Part shown: positions 42,067 to 51,505 of the stretch, piece after piece
Position numbering within the stretch: position 1 is the stretch's first letter
Layout of the letters: every line of letters starts with the position of its first letter
Made by a program: the position numbers and the translations under genes
The notes under the pieces: model-generated
What the model was told of the DNA's origin: nothing
Database searches by the model: none
Seen by the model: only the letters and a program-made list of their open reading frames with translations
Assembly: GCA_965216875.1 (NCBI GenBank)
Contig: OZ244207.1
Location: 2,336,001-2,400,000, forward strand
DNA: 64,000 nt
From: Rubripirellula sp.
Lineage (GTDB): Bacteria; Planctomycetota; Planctomycetia; Pirellulales; Pirellulaceae
Reading direction: 5' to 3'

Positions 42067-43167
42067 TCACTCGTCCGATAGGAAGCGTGATGCCCGGCGA
42101 AGGCCAACAGCACGCGATGTCGACCACACGGTCGAAACGTCGCCGATGTGTTGAACGAGGCTCGGGATCGGATACCAAAACGAGATCCCACGACTCCATG
42201 CCCAAGCGCCGACACGCGTATCAATCCCCGCTTCTCCAGCGACAGTCTCAAGCTGACCGTCCCGGATCGAATCAAGCAATTCAACTGCGACGCGCCGCGG
42301 AAAGACCCAGGCCACTGCCCCGAGCGTCCACGGCTCTTCAATAAGATGCCACCCCGGCTCTCGGTCGCGTGAATAGTCCGATGATGTATAAAGCGAAACG
42401 ATACAGTTGTCGGATGCTGGCCAAAACGCCGCCTCCAAGTAGGCACGCATCTCCGGTGCGGGTGCGAAATATGCATCGTCTTGAACAAGCATTAATGCAT
42501 CGGCATCGCCTGCATCCTCGAACAACAGCTCGAATGCCCGGCACCACGCAGTCCACGCCCCCGATGGACCGTCAAGCTCGATCGCGTGAAGCGTCTGATG
42601 CTCGCTGCCCAGTTCAACAGGCCCGTCAAGAAACAGAGTGAATTCGTCGCTCGACCAACCACATTGAAGCAAGCTGTTCACCGAATCTGTAACGGTGGAA
42701 AGCCGTCGGTGACACGTTGTCATGCCAACTGCCCAGCGCACGGGTGAACCGCAACGTTTCGGGGGAATCGGAATCCGCTTGGCCAGTTCTTGTTGATCAA
42801 ACGAACCCTGCGAATCAGTTGCTCGATTGCCGGCACAATCATCTTCGCTTGGCAAAACGGTTGGAAGCTGAGACTGGGCGAACGCGAGAAGCTCTTCCTG
42901 ACGATCACGTCCAGCACCGCAACTAACCGGCATTTCGCTTTCGACGAATTGATAAAGTAGCGATGCCACAACCGGATTCAAATCGCGAGCGTTCGGGGCA
43001 AAGCTCTCACAACACGCTTCGCAAGCCCCTTCGGGGATGTCGCTCAATCGATTCGGATCGACCTTCGTGATCTCCGCCAACAACCCACAGCAACAACGCT
43101 CGCCATCGACCATTCGGTACGGGCAATCGCACGGACGGCGTCCGGTGAATCGATCTTCGGCAGTCAT
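42067..43167 (-). CDS. GT-A fold glycosyltransferase-like protein with N-terminal Cys-rich module
   Basis: WAVGMTTCHR..TDSVNSL; LMLVQDD; GAVAWVFPR; GID; PSLVQHIG (resembles GT54/MGAT4- and GT25-like C-terminal motifs). Confidence 0.72.
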   Translation of the reverse strand: MTAEDRFTGRRPCDCPYRMVDGERCCCGLLAEITKVDPNRLSDIPEGACEACCESFAPNARDLNPVVASLLYQFVESEMPVSCGAGRDRQEELLAFAQSQLPTVLPSEDDCAGNRATDSQGSFDQQELAKRIPIPPKRCGSPVRWAVGMTTCHRRLSTVTDSVNSLLQCGWSSDEFTLFLDGPVELGSEHQTLHAIELDGPSGAWTAWCRAFELLFEDAGDADALMLVQDDAYFAPAPEMRAYLEAAFWPASDNCIVSLYTSSDYSRDREPGWHLIEEPWTLGAVAWVFPRRVAVELLDSIRDGQLETVAGEAGIDTRVGAWAWSRGISFWYPIPSLVQHIGDVSTVWSTSRAVGLRRASRFLSDE

Positions 43168-44891
43168 GGGTGCACGCGTTGGGTCACCTCGGCGTGAACA
43201 CCCAACGCACCGAATGGCCGCGGGTCAAACTGCCCGAGCGCGAAAAGTTGCAGTCGCCTTCCAAACTCTTCGTGCGATTCTTGATTGGGTCCGCTACCCA
43301 AACCTGTGCTGCTGTGCTGCGTCGCGGATTGCCTGTGACAGCGGTAACGCAACAACACCGACTTACTGACAGCGATGTGACTGCGCGCGTAGTAAGCCCG
43401 TGACTGCAATTCGGTATCGACCCCCGTTCGATTCCGTTTGCGCTCGCCAAAGTCGGCATACCCTCCCATTCCTTCGAACCAACTGCGTTTCATCACTAAC
43501 GTCGGATTCTCCAAAAAGTAGCCGGCCCCGCGGCGACATGGGTAACGCGACTCTCGCAGGTACCGCTTTGTTCCTTCGGCAGCGACCACGCGATGAGCGA
43601 CCGCAGGGAACAACTCCGGCAATCCAAACAACTCGGTGGCTCCGCCAGCGACGTCCGCACCCGAATGTTGAAGCAGTGCAACCAAACGCGCGAGACGATG
43701 AGGCAAACTCACGTCATCCGCGTCTTGAACGGCAAGGAACTCGGTCTCGGCAGATCGAGAAACGTTGTTGAACGTCAGGAATGGCCCGATGTTGAGAGAG
43801 TTGCGGTAGAACCGAATGTTCGAATACTCACTCAGCCCCCTAAATAGCTCATCGGACGATTGGGTTGAGCAATCATCGACAAGGTGAATTACTACATCGA
43901 CCCCAGCTTGCTCCAACAAACTCGCCACAGAACTTTGTACGTATTCGAAATCATCCCTGAAGGGGACGATCACATCACAACTAGCTCTCTCGTTTGATTC
44001 GGGCCTAAAAAGCCGCGACAAATTGGTTCGACGACAGAAAGTTGCACGTCGATCTTGAACTCGATTGGCATCCTTGCCACTTCGTAACGGTCCATCTTCA
44101 TCGATGCGAACCAATCGATGCTGCGCCGTCGCCACCGCGGCGAAATCGTCGAGCCCCTCGATCGTTTCCTGATCGTCAAGTATCATGTCAACGAGTGTTG
44201 CCCGCCTAACGACCACCGATTCGATCGACACCGATTCGCAATTCGAATCTCGATGGGCAAGCATTTCACCGCCGCGTTCATCAAGCGCGCCGATCACTTG
44301 CCGCAACGTTTGATCATCGTAAACCGCTGTTGCATCCAAGAGGGCAACGAATGGTGTCGTCAACTGGTCCAGTATCGACTCACTTCGCGCCGCGGTCGTT
44401 CCTTCTTTAGCAACACAGTGCACTCGAACGTTTGGCGTGTCGGCGTAGCGATCGGCGATGCTCGATGAAACTTCGTCGACCAGCAAATGCACCACAACAT
44501 AGACGCGATGCTGATTCAAGACCGAATCAAGCATTTGATCGATTGGTTTGACACAGCCGTGCAAATCGAGAACCACGTCGCAACTGTAGGACGCGGGCGC
44601 AAAGTGCATCGACGACTCTGCTCGAATCGATTTCTGCGACCAGGCATTGAGTAGGCTGGCCGCCTCGTCTTCGCCTTCACAATTCTCCGTCGCCCGATAG
44701 ATCAAGGACGAGATCACGGGATTTGCATCCGGCGAAGCAAAGGGCGAATGCGTCGCACAGACTTCACACGCAGTGAGGTCGACCTGACAATCGCGGTCGT
44801 CGGCTCCAGTCAATCGCTGTACGAATCCGCAAACCGCTGCGCCGTCAGGTCCGGAAACGATGCGAAAGGGGCACTCAGTCGGATCAGCCAC
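43164..44891 (-). CDS. Glycosyltransferase family 2 with N-terminal Cys-rich module and a degenerate first GT2 domain
   Basis: C-terminal GT2: DVIVPF..SVASLLEQ..HLVDDCS..NIG..FLAVQDADD..RL..YRCH; upstream degenerate copy CDVVL..LDSVLNQ..FVALLDATA. Confidence 0.85.
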   Translation of the reverse strand: MADPTECPFRIVSGPDGAAVCGFVQRLTGADDRDCQVDLTACEVCATHSPFASPDANPVISSLIYRATENCEGEDEAASLLNAWSQKSIRAESSMHFAPASYSCDVVLDLHGCVKPIDQMLDSVLNQHRVYVVVHLLVDEVSSSIADRYADTPNVRVHCVAKEGTTAARSESILDQLTTPFVALLDATAVYDDQTLRQVIGALDERGGEMLAHRDSNCESVSIESVVVRRATLVDMILDDQETIEGLDDFAAVATAQHRLVRIDEDGPLRSGKDANRVQDRRATFCRRTNLSRLFRPESNERASCDVIVPFRDDFEYVQSSVASLLEQAGVDVVIHLVDDCSTQSSDELFRGLSEYSNIRFYRNSLNIGPFLTFNNVSRSAETEFLAVQDADDVSLPHRLARLVALLQHSGADVAGGATELFGLPELFPAVAHRVVAAEGTKRYLRESRYPCRRGAGYFLENPTLVMKRSWFEGMGGYADFGERKRNRTGVDTELQSRAYYARSHIAVSKSVLLRYRCHRQSATQHSSTGLGSGPNQESHEEFGRRLQLFALGQFDPRPFGALGVHAEVTQRVHP

Positions 44892-45113
44892 CTAGACCGA
44901 CGTGGCTGGCGCCAAACAAGGTGTCGTGCGCAACTGGCCTTTGAATCGCCCAGCAAGCAGAGGTGGTTCGCCGACGACGCCGCCGTCGACCGGTTGGTTC
45001 AACTTGACGTTCCACTGGGCTCCATCAAATTCCCAGAGCGTCGTTCCGTAAGCTGACGCTTGCCCGCCGCTCGAATGCGAGTGCAATTTAACGTCTGATT
45101 CTGTGTCCCACAT
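44892..45113 (-). CDS. Small hypothetical protein (~73 aa) heading the glycosyltransferase operon
   Basis: AGAGGG RBS before ATG 45113; its TAG directly abuts the GTG start of the GT2 gene. Confidence 0.62.
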   Translation of the reverse strand: MWDTESDVKLHSHSSGGQASAYGTTLWEFDGAQWNVKLNQPVDGGVVGEPPLLAGRFKGQLRTTPCLAPATSV

Positions 45114-45292: not shown

Positions 45293-48200
45293 TTACTCCT
45301 GTACAGATGTCGGCGCCCTGACAACTCGAAAGCCGAACGAAAAAGCGCGCTTGCGCGTTGTCTCGGTTCCATCGGTAAGGAAATCAGGATCTGTATACGC
45401 GGTGTTGGCATACCCTCGGAACTGGCGCACATCACTGTTTTTGTTGACGCCGATGCCTGAGCACCACTCGCTTAAGTTGCCAACCATATCAAAGATGCCC
45501 AAGCGATTTGGCATAAACGTTTTAACCTTGTGAGGATTGTCTAAATCGTTCCCAACGAGCCATTTGTAATTACGTTGAAGGCTTGGATCGTGTCCGAAGG
45601 GGAAGGGAGTCGTCACCCCTGCAAAACATGCCGCCTCCCATTCTTCGGCCGTCGGTAAACGATACCCCTTTCGCGACAGGTAATCGGAACGAAGAAGGAT
45701 TTCGTCGTTCTCAAGTCCCTCGAGTGCTGGATAGCACATCTCCGCCTCACCCATCCCTTCCTGACGTGTGAGCCAACGCGTGTAGGAAACCGCATCAATC
45801 CAGTTCACCAATTGCATTGGATGCTCATTCGTGGGCGCCTGGTCGCGATGCACGTTCGGCTCTCGGCCAGGACGATGCTCAAGATACTGGCCCACCGTGA
45901 CTTCATTGATTGCGATTTCAAAATCGACCGTCTCATTGGAAACCCGCACCATCGTCTGGCCGCGAGGCGTCACTGTCCACTGATTCGACGGATCAGTTCG
46001 ACCGGCCAGTCCCAACGTTGCCTCATCGACCCACTGATCCATCCCAAGCTTTCGAAGCAGGTATTCCGATGCGCCATGAACGGCACAGTCGGGATGTTCA
46101 ACAAAGTGTCGCTGTGCTACGGCGGCAACGTTGTCTAGTTCATCCCCAGTACCGACAACGTTTTCAAATTGTGCGATCAACAGCATCAAACCGTAAATCT
46201 CGCCAGGGTCACTGGCGATTTGTAAACGCTGTACCAAAACGTTGGTCTCTAGCTCCAACTTGGGTGTTCGGTCCAGCAACCAGGCGCGTGTGTCGGGCAC
46301 ATCTTTATGCTGCAAACCCAACCACAACTCATCAAACTCGCCTCGGCTCGCCAACACGGCGATTGCGTTTGCCTTGCGGCTACTTTTTTCTGAAAGCTCT
46401 GTTTCATCCGCATCAGGTCCGATGTCTGGGAACGCAGCTTCCCTGAGTACCGGCGTGATTTCGTCCTCCATCGTTCCCAGCATCGCCAGAATCTCGCCAA
46501 CCCGCTCGCCGCGAACATCGAGCATCGTCAATGCGATCATGGCGGGTTCATCCGAATAGATGTCGCTCACCACGGCAACGGTCGCATCGCGCTGCTGGGG
46601 TGTAGCGTTCGTGCGAAATTCGGCTGCAAACGAATCGACAAGTGCCAACCGGATGGGCATCAGTCCATCGATGATCGCGTCGTAATTACCCGGTTTCGAA
46701 GAGACCTTTGCCAATGCCGTTTGAACGAGGAACGGTGCCAAGGCGTTCCAGCGCGATTCGGGACTCACATCGAGTTCTTCGCTGATCCTCGCGAGCACCA
46801 ATCCGCTACGCAATCGCAGATCATCATCTTCATCGTCGTCTTCCAGTGTTTTCAACAGACGCAAACGAAGCTGCTCGGTATCCCCTTTTCGCAGCTCTGC
46901 GGCGATCACCAACATCAAGTCGTAATCGACGGTGAACAATCGCTCGGTCAACTCATCAAAAACGCTTTGGTCCGTCGGGTCGATCGCAAGCAATGCCGTG
47001 TGCGCACGCAAGTGCTGCGGAGTCTCGACATCGTACTTTGTCAAACGGTGCCTGAGTTCCGACTGCATCCACGATCGATCGGCCTCGGCCTGCTTCAAGA
47101 GCCGCGGCAACTCGGAAGTATCCGCTGTCACCAGTTGGTCGGCCAAAGCGGTTGCCTTGATTTCGCGCGAATAGCGAAACGCACCGACGCCCAGTAGCAA
47201 CATGAATGCTACTGCCGCCACAGTGCCCAACAGATACCTTTTGTTGGCCGCGGAGAGCATCTCTTGGGCGGCTTGTCCACGCTGAGCCGGCATGGTCAAC
47301 AACGAAAAGTAGACCCACTCGATCCATGACGGCATGTGCCGCCGATCCGAACGTGAAAGGTAGACTTCCGTTCGATCGGCCAGTCGCAAGGCAGCACGCC
47401 CTCGCATCGTCAATTGTTGATGCGTTTCGATCCACTGGCGCACAGCTGGCACCAAAAAATCGTGGGTCAGCTGATAGCAAGATTCGCCCACAACCTTTTC
47501 AACCTCCCCCGCGCGACTTCGTCCCGCTGGCGTGATCAACCGCAGATCGCGATCCAAGATTTCGATCATCTCATTGAACCGTTTTGGGTGCTGCCCATAC
47601 CCACACAAAAGACGCAGCTCCGATTCAGGTCGCATCGCTCCTTTGATGTTGGTGCCTGTCGCTGGAAGCAACGCCGCAAGCAGTTTGCGAGTCGCCTCGA
47701 GGTGCTTTCGATTGCCTACCGGAGCGTCAGGAGAAGAGAAAGACTCATCAAGAAATCGTGCACCTACACCTTCGATCCCTCCCAACGCACTCAGCGAATC
47801 CGCATCCCATTGGCGAGTCTTCATCATCTCGGCAAAGGTGGCAAGGCGGACCGGCATCACGGTCGAATTCTCGCTCAAGCCTTCGATCGCACGTTCCACA
47901 AAGATCTCTTGTTGGTAGCTCCAGTCGCTCGATCGGTCAGGAAGTTTTCCAAAGGCTCGCCCAAATTCACCGAGCACTTTCTGGGCATGGGGGCCGTCGA
48001 AACGATCGATCAATGCCAGGTTTCGATTTCCAACAAGATCGACCTCAAGTTCGTCCATCAGCTGGCTAATCGAAAGCCAAAACTCGTCACGCACAAGAAA
48101 CAAAGACTGGAGATTCAAGCCATCGCACTGCCGAAATGCGATCGCGAGCTCGTCTACTCCGGAAGCCGCGCGGGCGTGCAGCCATTGCTCGAATTGATCA

Positions 48201-49918
48201 ACAACGATCAAGGTTTTGCGGCCAAGTTCACTCTTGGCGTATCGGCGCAACCACGACATGCTGTCGATGAGATCGAGATCGCTTGGCAAACCAGGACACT
48301 CTGACTTGAGCGCCGCGTGCAAGTCTTTGGCAAGCCCGTCCCCAGAGGCTTCGACAAACACAACCGTCACCGACTCGTCGATCAACGGCACCAGCCCCGC
48401 TTTGACGAACGAAGACTTCCCGCATCCTGAAGGCCCATAAATCACACCCGCACGAAATGCCAATTCAGGATCGTCGGACAGGATTCGCCGCTGCCAAAAC
48501 CGCAAACTCTCTGGCACGCCCAGGCGATCCAACGGCCCCGGCAGCAACTGCTGGAAGAAACTAGCGTCCTCGGTATCAAACGACCTTAGTCCCCGAGGCA
48601 CGATCTTCTCTGGACGTGACGAGCTCGGATCGGCTCCAGAAGCAACCGCCTGCATACCGAACGATGAGTTTCCGATCGACTCTTCAAGCACGCTCGCCAG
48701 TTCGGCAGCGAACGCAGCCGCACTCGGATAGCGATCAGCAGCACGCTTGCTGAGCGCGCGGCTACAAATCCTGTCGAGCTCTTTGGGCAAAACGGGATTG
48801 TGATGCTGGAGCGGCAAGGGATCCAGTGTCAAAACCTCGTCGATCACTTGGTGGTGTGTTTTTCCGGGGAAGGGACGTCCGCCCCCAAGAACCTCATACA
48901 TCACAACGCCAAGACTGAACACGTCACTGCGTCCGTCCACCAAGTGACCTTCGCCACGCGCTTGTTCGGGACTCATATAGCCGGGAGTGCCAAGCCACCC
49001 ACGCCGTCGTTCGTGAGCGTCCTCGGTCAATGCGAGCCCAAAATCGCTCACGAAACACTCGCCGCGCTCGTCGAGCAACAAATTGGCCGGTTTGATGTCG
49101 CGATGCACAACTCCCTGGTCGTGCACGGATTGAAGAGTCTCGGCAACGGACTGGACCAAAACAAGCGCGTCACGAATCGGCATCGGAGCACGACGAATCC
49201 GTTGACTCAACGATTCGCCCTTGATGTACTTCATCACCACGAAACAGCGATCGTCGATTCGGCCGACATCGTAGATGGGAACCACGTGCGAATGATCCAA
49301 ATTGGCAAGCATTCGCGCTTCGGAAAGGTACAACTCAATCGCGGCGGGCGTCATCTCGCGATCGGGATGCGGGAGTTTGACCGCCACTTGCCGGTTCAAC
49401 TCCGGGTCCTGCGCGAGATAGACGTTTCCGAATCCGCCCGATCCCAACACGCTTTCCAGTTGATACCTGCCCACCGTCAACCCAAGGTCGCTGGAAGCGT
49501 CCTTTGCTTGGCTGTTTGTGCCAACCGAGATCTCATGTTCAGCCGTTCGCGCACCCGCTACGTTGGTCGCGCTGTGATTCGATTCGCTGGCAATCGTTGC
49601 GTGCCCATCGAGCACTTCTTTGATCACGTTGGTGAACTGAGGAAACTCGCTGAAATAGTCACCCACGCTTCGCGAAGAGCCGCGTTGTTGTCGCATGGAC
49701 ATGTCGAACAGAAGCAACTCGCGAAAAACCTCGGCTCGCTGCTTGACCGGAATCTCGTCTTGCACGAGCTGGTCTACGAAGCTGCGGAGGCTGAAATCTC
49801 CCTCTTCATGCCAGCTGCTCTCAAACTGAGCGCGATAATTTGAGTGGTCGGCCGAATCTTGATCGACCGTTTCATCGCTTGTCATTTCAAAACTAGCTTC
49901 AACCGACTCATGCCCCAA
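45293..49918 (-). CDS. Ser/Thr kinase + nSTAND1-type NTPase + TM + helical region + FGE-sulfatase (C-lectin fold) domain
   Basis: LGSGGFGNV, VAVK, HRDIKPANLL, DFG, GTPGYMSPEQ; GLRSF, GPSGCGKSSFVKAG, VDQFEQ, LTHDFLV; TM; RLPTAEEWE, PNRLGIFDMVGNLSEWC, GFRVVR. Confidence 0.9.
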   Translation of the reverse strand: MGHESVEASFEMTSDETVDQDSADHSNYRAQFESSWHEEGDFSLRSFVDQLVQDEIPVKQRAEVFRELLLFDMSMRQQRGSSRSVGDYFSEFPQFTNVIKEVLDGHATIASESNHSATNVAGARTAEHEISVGTNSQAKDASSDLGLTVGRYQLESVLGSGGFGNVYLAQDPELNRQVAVKLPHPDREMTPAAIELYLSEARMLANLDHSHVVPIYDVGRIDDRCFVVMKYIKGESLSQRIRRAPMPIRDALVLVQSVAETLQSVHDQGVVHRDIKPANLLLDERGECFVSDFGLALTEDAHERRRGWLGTPGYMSPEQARGEGHLVDGRSDVFSLGVVMYEVLGGGRPFPGKTHHQVIDEVLTLDPLPLQHHNPVLPKELDRICSRALSKRAADRYPSAAAFAAELASVLEESIGNSSFGMQAVASGADPSSSRPEKIVPRGLRSFDTEDASFFQQLLPGPLDRLGVPESLRFWQRRILSDDPELAFRAGVIYGPSGCGKSSFVKAGLVPLIDESVTVVFVEASGDGLAKDLHAALKSECPGLPSDLDLIDSMSWLRRYAKSELGRKTLIVVDQFEQWLHARAASGVDELAIAFRQCDGLNLQSLFLVRDEFWLSISQLMDELEVDLVGNRNLALIDRFDGPHAQKVLGEFGRAFGKLPDRSSDWSYQQEIFVERAIEGLSENSTVMPVRLATFAEMMKTRQWDADSLSALGGIEGVGARFLDESFSSPDAPVGNRKHLEATRKLLAALLPATGTNIKGAMRPESELRLLCGYGQHPKRFNEMIEILDRDLRLITPAGRSRAGEVEKVVGESCYQLTHDFLVPAVRQWIETHQQLTMRGRAALRLADRTEVYLSRSDRRHMPSWIEWVYFSLLTMPAQRGQAAQEMLSAANKRYLLGTVAAVAFMLLLGVGAFRYSREIKATALADQLVTADTSELPRLLKQAEADRSWMQSELRHRLTKYDVETPQHLRAHTALLAIDPTDQSVFDELTERLFTVDYDLMLVIAAELRKGDTEQLRLRLLKTLEDDDEDDDLRLRSGLVLARISEELDVSPESRWNALAPFLVQTALAKVSSKPGNYDAIIDGLMPIRLALVDSFAAEFRTNATPQQRDATVAVVSDIYSDEPAMIALTMLDVRGERVGEILAMLGTMEDEITPVLREAAFPDIGPDADETELSEKSSRKANAIAVLASRGEFDELWLGLQHKDVPDTRAWLLDRTPKLELETNVLVQRLQIASDPGEIYGLMLLIAQFENVVGTGDELDNVAAVAQRHFVEHPDCAVHGASEYLLRKLGMDQWVDEATLGLAGRTDPSNQWTVTPRGQTMVRVSNETVDFEIAINEVTVGQYLEHRPGREPNVHRDQAPTNEHPMQLVNWIDAVSYTRWLTRQEGMGEAEMCYPALEGLENDEILLRSDYLSRKGYRLPTAEEWEAACFAGVTTPFPFGHDPSLQRNYKWLVGNDLDNPHKVKTFMPNRLGIFDMVGNLSEWCSGIGVNKNSDVRQFRGYANTAYTDPDFLTDGTETTRKRAFSFGFRVVRAPTSVQE

Positions 49919-50026: not shown

Positions 50027-51505
50027 CTAGAGTCGCTGCAGCGCAACCCCACCCGTTTTGCGGGCAAGCTGAATCAGGTCGTCATTCTCGGCTTCAACGA
50101 TAAAGACGTGCAGCATGATTCCCTTGAGCTCTTTCGGCTGGACATTTATCCCGTGATCTCCGTCGGTAACAATGATGAGCTCCGGCCGTAGAGCATCCAT
50201 GTCGCTAACCGCTTTGCGAATCCTCTTAATCCCTTCGCGCAACGCGAGGTTGATGTCCGTGTCATCCCCCATGAAAAAGTCGTAGTGCAAACGCTGGATC
50301 TCTTCGCGTGCTTCGGACACTTCCGTGACCATGACTTCATCGTGAACGACCGAATCAAAAAAGCTGTAGCCCAAAACCGCCTCACGACGTCCGACCGCTC
50401 GCAGTCGGTTCAGCAAAATTGCCAGCAATTTGTAGATCCGTTCGCCCGCTTGCATCGATTTACTGCGATCAAGCAGCGCGTAGAAAAACTGCTTCTTGTC
50501 ACTCCGCTTGATCTTTTCTCGAACCATGAAGCTCTTCGTTGCGACACGGTACCGAAAGTACTTTGGTGAGGCCACTTTCATCGCCCAAGCCGCCGGGGCA
50601 AGCTTCGACAACTCATCAAAGGACTGCATCATCCTCATCCGAGTTTGATCGCCGTCCGCTGCCGGAATCATCTTTTTCTCAAAACGTGGCTGAAACGCGA
50701 CATATTCGTTCGCGATTCGAGCAATCCGAAGCAAAGCCTCCATGCTCGGTTCTTCGAGCAATCGCGAGGCAACGTTCAATCGCCGAACCGAAAGCGGGTG
50801 CATTTCCTTCTTCTCGGTTTGCTCGCGCATCCCGCCAAAGCAATCACTAAAAAGCGACGCGATTCGACCGCGTGTTTCGATCGTTTCGACAAGTTGTATC
50901 GAGGTGATGCCGCGATCAACACTCATCTGTTCGTGGTCAATCTTGTCGGTTGGCTTGAGCTGGTCTTCATTGGGAAGACATTCGAGCAATTCGATTTCAT
51001 CCGCTTCAAGCCCACCTACCTCCTGGAGCGCCCAATTGATCTGTTCAGCAATCTTCTCGGGTGGAATCCCGACTGCGATGGCGCGTTTTGCCGTTGCGAT
51101 GATCGCAACGTTGGCGATGGCTCGATCGATGTCGGTTCGACCGTGAATGTTCTGAAACTCGACATCGCGCAAGCTGAGAACTAAACGATGATAGATTTCG
51201 GCGTCCTTGACCGACCAGTTCACGAATTCATCAAGCCACTGAAGCGGCTTCCACATTCGCATCCTGTAAGTGAGCCGCGTGCGCCGTTCGATTTCCGCCT
51301 TACTGGCGAAGGTGCCTTCGTCAACCAGATGCACACCGTCCCAAATGATGGGCAACGGAAGATGATGCATCCCAATGGCATCGAGTTTCTTCACCACTTC
51401 GTTTGTGTTGATCTGCTGCCGCCGTTCACTCATGTCTGGCAAAGTGACATGAGTGTGGTGCTTGATGAAATTCAGAAATCTGCGATCAACTCGAATGCGT
51501 TCCAT
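50027..51505 (-). CDS. vWA-domain protein (ViaA/CoxE-like architecture)
   Basis: C-terminal MIDAS: LLDRSKSM, GDDTD, IIVTDG; helical N-terminus. Confidence 0.8.
   Translation of the reverse strand: MERIRVDRRFLNFIKHHTHVTLPDMSERRQQINTNEVVKKLDAIGMHHLPLPIIWDGVHLVDEGTFASKAEIERRTRLTYRMRMWKPLQWLDEFVNWSVKDAEIYHRLVLSLRDVEFQNIHGRTDIDRAIANVAIIATAKRAIAVGIPPEKIAEQINWALQEVGGLEADEIELLECLPNEDQLKPTDKIDHEQMSVDRGITSIQLVETIETRGRIASLFSDCFGGMREQTEKKEMHPLSVRRLNVASRLLEEPSMEALLRIARIANEYVAFQPRFEKKMIPAADGDQTRMRMMQSFDELSKLAPAAWAMKVASPKYFRYRVATKSFMVREKIKRSDKKQFFYALLDRSKSMQAGERIYKLLAILLNRLRAVGRREAVLGYSFFDSVVHDEVMVTEVSEAREEIQRLHYDFFMGDDTDINLALREGIKRIRKAVSDMDALRPELIIVTDGDHGINVQPKELKGIMLHVFIVEAENDDLIQLARKTGGVALQRL

Follow-up and report, generated by a model that had tools for sequence, protein, structure and literature searches.

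Why do two neighbouring glycosyltransferases of a planctomycete begin with the same cysteine-rich segment? The two enzymes, referred to as gene A and gene B, are encoded in a stretch of 64,000 nucleotides from Rubripirellula sp. (assembly GCA_965216875.1, contig OZ244207.1), which we call the window. We find that the shared segment is a real, unnamed and well-folded domain, here termed the Cys4 module. It defines an undescribed planctomycete glycosylation cassette, the specific parts of which have homologues in phage tail modules. As a tentative reading, to which we give slightly less than an even chance, the module docks cytoplasmic glycosyltransferases on a small protein of the cassette for O-glycosylation of its Ser/Thr-rich segment. 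The small gene, a kinase gene and the phage link go beyond a preliminary description of this DNA, made from the sequence alone, which had noticed the two N-terminal segments. Neither the domain nor the cassette was found described in the literature searched, which covered the supplements of PMC8195603 in part, and a neighbourhood of this kind may be listed there.

The Cys4 module and its carriers

Both segments are in frame as quoted in the preliminary description, and they account for the only significant similarity between the two proteins: BLASTP of gene A against gene B yields a single significant high-scoring segment pair, at the N-terminus, with 23 of 68 residues identical (E 2e-8). The four cysteines align as proposed, and 11 residues separate the last Cys from the NPV motif in each copy. 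When searched by tblastn against the 8.26-Mb genome, each module retrieves the other copy at E 6-7e-7 and nothing further below 0.015; by profile, the whole genome holds two copies only, those of genes A and B. The length had been put at about 58 residues, which falls short of the actual domain. The AlphaFold model (pLDDT 94) predicts a unit of about 95 residues with a β-hairpin (strands at residues 10–13 and 16–19) and four helices (20–26, 40–46, 57–70 and 77–91), extending about 35 residues beyond the NPVxxSLLY motif with two C-terminal helices.

The preliminary description had proposed a profile search listing fused domains and gene neighbours, and this search uncovered many homologues, varied fused enzymes and a recurrent cassette. 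A profile built from 22 module sequences retrieved 355 representatives at a cut-off of E ≤ 0.001, of which the best 150 were listed in detail; the counts out of 150 below refer to these. The four cysteines are kept in 147/147, 149/149, 150/150 and 149/150 sequences. Other conserved positions are R10 (144/147), N61 (143/150) and S66 (144/150), and a fifth Cys is frequent (110/150). Among 120 listed homologues of gene B, the cysteines are present in 103/103, 108/108, 113/114 and 113/113 of the sequences spanning each position. Loss of the cysteines in homologues, or a match to a described family, had been named as grounds for abandoning the proposal. The cysteines are kept at 99–100%, and no named family emerged. 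The window modules have no match near the cut-off in Pfam or NCBIfam, and the 22 modules reached at best E 0.0076 in Pfam and E 0.037 in PHROG, each for one member. Sequence searches of the PDB with profiles of the module, the gene-B-type domain and the small protein were empty below E 0.7. Fold searches with the module gave at best E 1.8 (Foldseek, PDB), E 1.0 (BFVD), Z 4.7 (VIA, wide search) and, in the ESM Atlas, a feature score of 0.75 with a TM-score of at most 0.50, and they do not establish a novel fold.

Because four invariant cysteines occur in proteins without export signals, the module is likely to bind zinc, which agrees with Cys4 zinc domains, where four such residues lie in a cytoplasmic protein. 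A scan for transmembrane (TM) segments found none in the gene A or gene B protein. The same four cysteines, together with the frequent fifth, could instead hold an iron–sulfur cluster or a disulfide pair that redox-regulates the enzymes. We regard this as very improbable. The spacing C-x(8-17)-C-x(~20)-CxxC is unlike the CxxCxxC motif of ferredoxins and the CxxxCxxC motif of radical-SAM enzymes, and no recurrent redox genes appear in the 13 neighbourhoods listed.

The module stands at the N-terminus in 138 of the 150 proteins and internally in 12. Pfam domains fused to it in 89 longer carriers scanned comprise GT2, GT4, GT25, CAP59, methyltransferase-24, sulfotransferase, polysaccharide deacetylase, PRTase and NPCBM, and POMGnT1-like enzymes are also among its fusion partners in Planctomycetota. 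It is distributed unevenly, with 12 carriers among 200 family genomes (a thirteenth is marginal, E 1e-3) and 5 among 400 phylum genomes. Through gene B we further collected 80 bacterial loci, which by title belong to Planctomycetota (77), Verrucomicrobiales (2) and a cyanobacterium (1, on a 2-kb contig). Since some of these loci overlap genomes of the family search, the two sets of counts are kept separate.

We notice a second unnamed module with Cys and His residues (C-x-aromatic-x-G ... C-x-H ... TT ... CxxC) behind the Cys4 module in 24 of the 150 proteins and 13 of the 80 loci, including P0128, P0134, P0144, L103, L107, L111 and L116. It is absent from the window's genome, matches two phage enzymes weakly (viral loci L152 and L155), and has an extra CxxC in some copies. 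We considered it as a relative of the Cys4 module and rejected this, as no homology is detectable (HHalign P 0.65).

Enzymes, small gene and kinase of the cassette

Behind the modules, the two proteins had been described as carrying different catalytic domains. This holds at the level of sequence, where no significant similarity is seen, but the two domains are both of the GT-A type. Gene A continues with a GT2-like domain that has no DxD-type motif, followed by a GT2 domain with the motif QDADD; Pfam PF00535 matches both stretches (E 2e-22). Its homologues repeat this arrangement, with no DxD-type motif in the first GT2 stretch and (Q/H)D(A/G/S)DD in the second. The motif pattern suggests that the first domain is likely inactive.

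In gene B, a GT-A-fold domain follows at residues 143–365, with the motifs QDD, W-x2-GA and PSLVQHIG. It has no match in Pfam or NCBIfam, and it matches the glucosyltransferase family phrog_854 at E 7e-9. The full-length AlphaFold model is confident (pLDDT 91, pTM 0.89). The closest folds to the catalytic domain are glycoprotein GlcNAc transferases, namely POMGnT1 (5ggf; Z 16.7, rmsd 3.4 over 203 residues) and then GnT-I (1fo9; Z 13.9), both of which we take to be GT13 enzymes. The sequence identity to these is only 16–17%, and gene B has no membrane anchor. Both Asp residues of the acidic motif Q229-D230-D231 are conserved in 120/120 homologues; the predicted GT-A fold together with this putative metal-binding motif marks gene B as a GT-A enzyme. 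In a tree of 83 gene-B-type domains (41 of type B, every second one taken, 16 of a paralogue B2 and 26 viral; domains below 185 residues and duplicates left out), type B and 22 viral sequences group apart from B2 (support 0.94). This tree gives no direction of transfer because it is midpoint-rooted and was built without a clade test.

The genes of the cassette follow one another closely (Table 1). After the kinase gene and a gap of 180 bp come the small gene, gene A and gene B, with stop and start codons that adjoin or overlap: the GTG with which gene A starts comes immediately after the small gene's stop codon, and the stop of gene A overlaps the start of gene B in an ATGA. A scan for promoters and terminators gave nothing above shuffled sequences.

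Table 1. Features of the cassette in the window
Feature	Position	Strand	Details
Gene B	42067..43167	minus	366 aa
Cys4 module, gene B	42859..43140	minus	residues 10-103; C15, C27, C49, C52; N64
Gene A	43164..44891	minus	575 aa
Cys4 module, gene A	44616..44885	minus	residues 3-92; C7, C21, C42, C45; N58
Small gene, 73 aa	44892..45113	minus	Ser-rich segment, then core of about 50 aa at 44904..45053
Ser/Thr kinase-nSTAND1-FGS	45293..49918	minus	1541 aa; Pfam PF00069, PF20703, PF03781

The small gene is real, since it is called as a gene (P0266) and shows a coding pattern against its counterpart in locus L056 (identity at the three codon positions 49/57/27 of 71). The 14 residues ahead of the core contain 24.7% Ser and Thr over 48 proteins, compared with a background of 11.5%, and at least two such residues precede the core in 42 of the 48. 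Cys is absent from 22 of the 48 bacterial cores, and a TM-like segment occurs in 14 of the 48 proteins. A search of the ESM Atlas with the small domain found no usable match. The small protein is a candidate acceptor or partner of the enzymes. Two copies of the small gene occur in one locus in L059, L099 and L167/L171.

Among the 80 loci, the module is found in 79, the small gene in 62 and the kinase in 53. The small gene ends 12–282 bp ahead of a module in 61 of its 62 loci, and it is present in 20 of the 35 loci that have a single module. It escaped the profile in 13 loci whose upstream sequence spans 1 kb or more, although L117 has a divergent copy by eye; a genome-wide search for 10 of these 13 loci found the small gene elsewhere in all 10 genomes. 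Of the 200 family genomes, 12 have the module, 11 have a strong match to the small gene and 122 have the kinase helical region. Ten of the 11 strong scorers were themselves in the profile, and the eleventh is genome G174. At the corresponding place, the two remaining module genomes have open reading frames (ORFs) that match the small gene weakly (E 0.046 and 0.021). Because the kinase class is so common in the family, we take the module and the small gene as the specific pair.

Two to four module copies in 44 of the 80 loci, and the translational coupling of the two module-bearing enzymes in the window, would also suit a homotypic or heterotypic oligomerisation domain that builds an enzyme assembly line. 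A precedent is offered by the effector-associated domains EAD1-10, operon-repeated small adaptor domains proposed to couple proteins, as far as the paper was available to us (Kaur et al., 2020; PMC7159879). The module resembles these in being small, non-enzymatic, repeated within operons and terminal on varied enzymes. It differs in its four invariant cysteines, in its absence from the core NTPase and in the grouping of its copies by enzyme type and not by locus. All 127 module matches in the 80 loci lie outside kinase and STAND ORFs. Of 93 modules compared, 2 have their nearest relative in their own locus, and for 73 the nearest relative sits on an enzyme of the same type. Moreover, 35 of the 80 loci, some cut by contig ends, hold one module only. 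We consider such an oligomerisation role unlikely.

The kinase protein combines, in order, a Ser/Thr kinase, an nSTAND1 NTPase, one TM helix (residue ~896), a helical region and an FGE-sulfatase (FGS) domain, and its kinase and Walker A motifs are intact. All three Pfam domains recur in 9 of the 10 neighbour kinases scanned; that of L032 has no nSTAND1. Kaur et al. (2021; PMC8195603), in the portions available to us, describe NTPase-FGS conflict systems and propose that FGS is a lectin-fold sensor and that GT4 domains serve as effectors. The cassette kinase, which shares the combination of Ser/Thr kinase, nSTAND1 and FGS, belongs to the nSTAND1-FGS class of that account. The cassette differs from those systems in the TM helix between STAND and FGS, in the separate enzyme genes bearing the Cys4 module and in the small gene related to phage repeats, and the text covered describes no cassette of the present kind.

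We also weighed a docking site on the receptor instead: the module would bring the enzymes to its cytoplasmic kinase/STAND portion, this portion would activate them, and the small protein would serve the receptor. The kinase is present in many loci, and the small gene remains with it in genomes G599 and G601. A comparison of pairwise distances over 33 loci, a weak test given short sequences and the non-independence of kin, gave a correlation of 0.55 for module B with STAND, the module's highest, and of 0.40 for the small protein with the kinase helical region. However, most family genomes with the kinase class have no module, and four loci of at least 15 kb contain the small gene and the module without a kinase. 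No Ser/Thr kinase or STAND match was found in 80 viral loci described below, including the four phages that carry the module. Docking on the kinase appears quite unlikely.

Several further observations concern the kinase and its surroundings. Two more kinase-nSTAND1 paralogues without a module are present in the window's genome (G000:C1:5659627-5664927 and 3047811-3052409). An ECF-sigma-like gene, read by eye, directly precedes the kinase in L030:3773-4444, L034:4052-4660 and L032:13586-14179. Upstream of the kinase in the window, a 492-residue protein (50027..51505, minus strand) has a weak vWA match (E 4e-4, below the cut-off), and it is absent from the 12 neighbourhoods compared. In L029:2-6148, genes with a caspase domain and with CHAT-nSTAND1 (Pfam) adjoin the cassette, and L053 has a similar-looking pair by eye; these neighbours may hint at a conflict context. 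Kinase or enzyme ORFs lie in several frames at L085, L088, L105, L125 and L028, possibly through sequencing errors or decay.

Relatives in phage tail regions

The small-protein profile weakly matched repeats of a Thr/Cys-rich protein of 734 residues in viral locus L177, which is encoded after a tape-measure gene and before three modifying enzymes. In the reciprocal direction, a profile of the nine L177 repeats alone ranks 24 small cassette ORFs at the top of the bacterial-locus ORFs (E 5e-6 to 0.18), with the first non-member at E 0.23 and the best reversed-control match at E 0.011. HHalign aligns the small protein with the L177 repeat at P 95.1 (E 3e-8). By these profile comparisons, the small protein is homologous to the Cys repeat of Ser/Thr-rich phage tail-region proteins, in which each repeat has 4–6 Cys. 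Two DNA-pattern scans for the phage repeat were mostly noise and give "at least" counts only; since their preselection of W-x-G-x-x-W biases the E-values, we rely on the reciprocal profile test.

The module itself was found in phage L234, directly behind a Ser-rich repeat protein (E 6e-4 in 23,191 ORFs; next unrelated match 0.25). We then selected 80 viral loci by the second domain of this module protein, and four distinct phages carry the module: L420 (identical to L234), L423, L472 and L424, the last picked by eye. In all four, the gene of the repeat protein comes first, then that of the module protein and then that of the enzyme. Matches to phrog_854, as for gene B, were obtained with the enzymes of L234, L423 and L424, three phages that have a common gene order and are possibly related. 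The L472 enzyme has no PHROG match and is a glycosyltransferase by reading of its sequence alone. Tape-measure genes lie upstream in L177, L234, L423 and L424.

A profile of the four phage modules picks out 47 of 24,142 bacterial ORFs at E ≤ 1, of which 45 are module ORFs (best 6e-8; best reversed control 0.48), and HHalign aligns phage and bacterial modules at P 89.8 (E 2e-6). All four phage modules keep the four Cys as well as the Asn and the Ser. The phage module is part of a separate two-domain protein, which is not fused to any enzyme. Since it stands as a free adaptor in phages and is fused to each enzyme in bacteria, as would be expected of a targeting tag, the most plausible reading of the module is as a domain that targets enzymes to the repeat.

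Thirty viral loci, L177 among them, encode the gene-B-type catalytic domain, several of them with other Cys-rich N-terminal domains; neither a Ser/Thr kinase nor a STAND match was found in them. These viral data bear on the possibility that the module is a structural metal-binding cap, which stabilises or gates its own catalytic domain without a partner protein. Such a cap would fit the full-length model of gene B, which is confident as a single unit. On the other side, the module precedes GT-A-fold, GT-B-fold and non-glycosyltransferase enzymes alike, is unfused in the four phages, and is missing from viral homologues of the gene-B-type domain. A purely structural role seems distinctly improbable to us.

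Apart from these, a third phage Cys domain (alignment A8, M-x-x-WG-x-x-GC) occurs in 115 viral stretches, including L420-L499, L143, L147, L159, L233 and L242, where it stands by itself, follows one of various Cys modules or is joined to a glycosyltransferase. A phage multi-glycosyltransferase (L142:4551-7871) has an N-terminal DUF6171 Cys domain ahead of a gene-B-type domain, and DUF6171 may fill a similar adaptor role.

A possible docking role in O-glycosylation

From this anatomy and these homologies we infer a function. Each enzyme would carry the module as a four-cysteine, probably zinc-binding docking domain. The docked enzymes would O-glycosylate the Ser/Thr-rich segment of the small tail-like protein, and the kinase-STAND-FGS receptor would either control the pathway or sense what it makes. 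In phages, the module would be an unfused adaptor linking a Ser/Thr-rich repeat protein to a glycosyltransferase. On the simplest reading, planctomycetes may have taken over this phage tail-glycosylation kit and set it beside a receptor kinase, with the direction of transfer being our supposition. The preliminary description had suggested substrate recognition, heterodimerisation or redox control. Substrate recognition is now the best supported of these because a candidate substrate, the 73-residue protein, and a phage parallel have come to light; heterodimerisation stays a rival, and the redox role has gained no specific support.

Several findings weigh against docking on the small protein. 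Genome G174, 99% complete, has the small gene (G174:C11:76725-77021, L054:9726-10022), possibly as a remnant, without a module or a gene-B-type enzyme. In G599 and G601 the small gene lies beside the kinase, and the glycosyltransferase is elsewhere. In the weak distance test over 33 loci, the small protein and module B correlate least of all (Spearman 0.14). No Ser/Thr position is invariant among the small proteins. The module was not found in the 30 viral loci with a gene-B-type domain, and only four distinct phages of the 80 selected viral loci carry it. The pTM of the gene B model may also fit a module packed on its own catalytic domain.

Known systems offer partial parallels to docking on the small protein. 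RiPP (ribosomally synthesised and post-translationally modified peptide) recognition elements, which are PqqD-like, combine a three-stranded sheet with three helices in a winged-helix topology. Like them, the module is a small domain on modifying enzymes beside a short gene that possibly encodes the substrate. Its predicted hairpin, four helices and Cys4 site differ from that winged helix, and PqqD-like domains are not among the module's fold-search matches listed. The small protein, with its conserved, folded-looking core of the phage-repeat type, shows no evident split into leader and core as in a RiPP precursor.

Virion glycosylation is known from mycobacteriophages, in which capsid and tail glycans have been described (Freeman et al., 2023, as cited in PMC12619734). 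The likeness lies in glycosyltransferase genes beside structural genes. Our phage relatives lie directly behind tape-measure and Ser/Thr-rich tail-region genes and are known from gene order and homology alone. Unlike the present kit, that account, in the portions available, mentions no adaptor domain or bacterial chromosomal counterpart. In eukaryotes, POFUT1/2 and FUT10/11 glycosylate folded Cys-rich repeats, according to the parts of PMC11949838 available to us. They resemble the proposed reaction in directing O-glycosylation at a small folded Cys-rich repeat, but they are enzymes of the endoplasmic reticulum that recognise the repeat without a separate domain, and we claim no homology.

A more far-reaching version, which we hold to be rather unlikely, is that the cassette is a domesticated phage tail-glycosylation kit joined to a kinase-STAND-lectin receptor and used against phages. 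Its parts would be a single Cys-depleted tail repeat, an enzyme-fused Cys4 adaptor and phage-type glycosyltransferases. The small protein could serve as a glycosylated tail mimic, or the enzymes could mis-glycosylate the tails of infecting phages, in which case the module would recognise repeats of their tail proteins.

If docking on the small protein is true, the cassette would provide a portable address, a tag of 50 residues, for cytoplasmic protein O-glycosylation, and it would explain how such phages would direct sugars to a single protein of the tail. An unannotated family of GT-A enzymes, near POMGnT1 in fold, gains a function that can be tested. For planctomycetes, docking of this kind offers a concrete candidate output for one of their many uncharacterised kinase-STAND-FGS receptors, and it points to a possible reuse of phage structural-gene machinery by the host.

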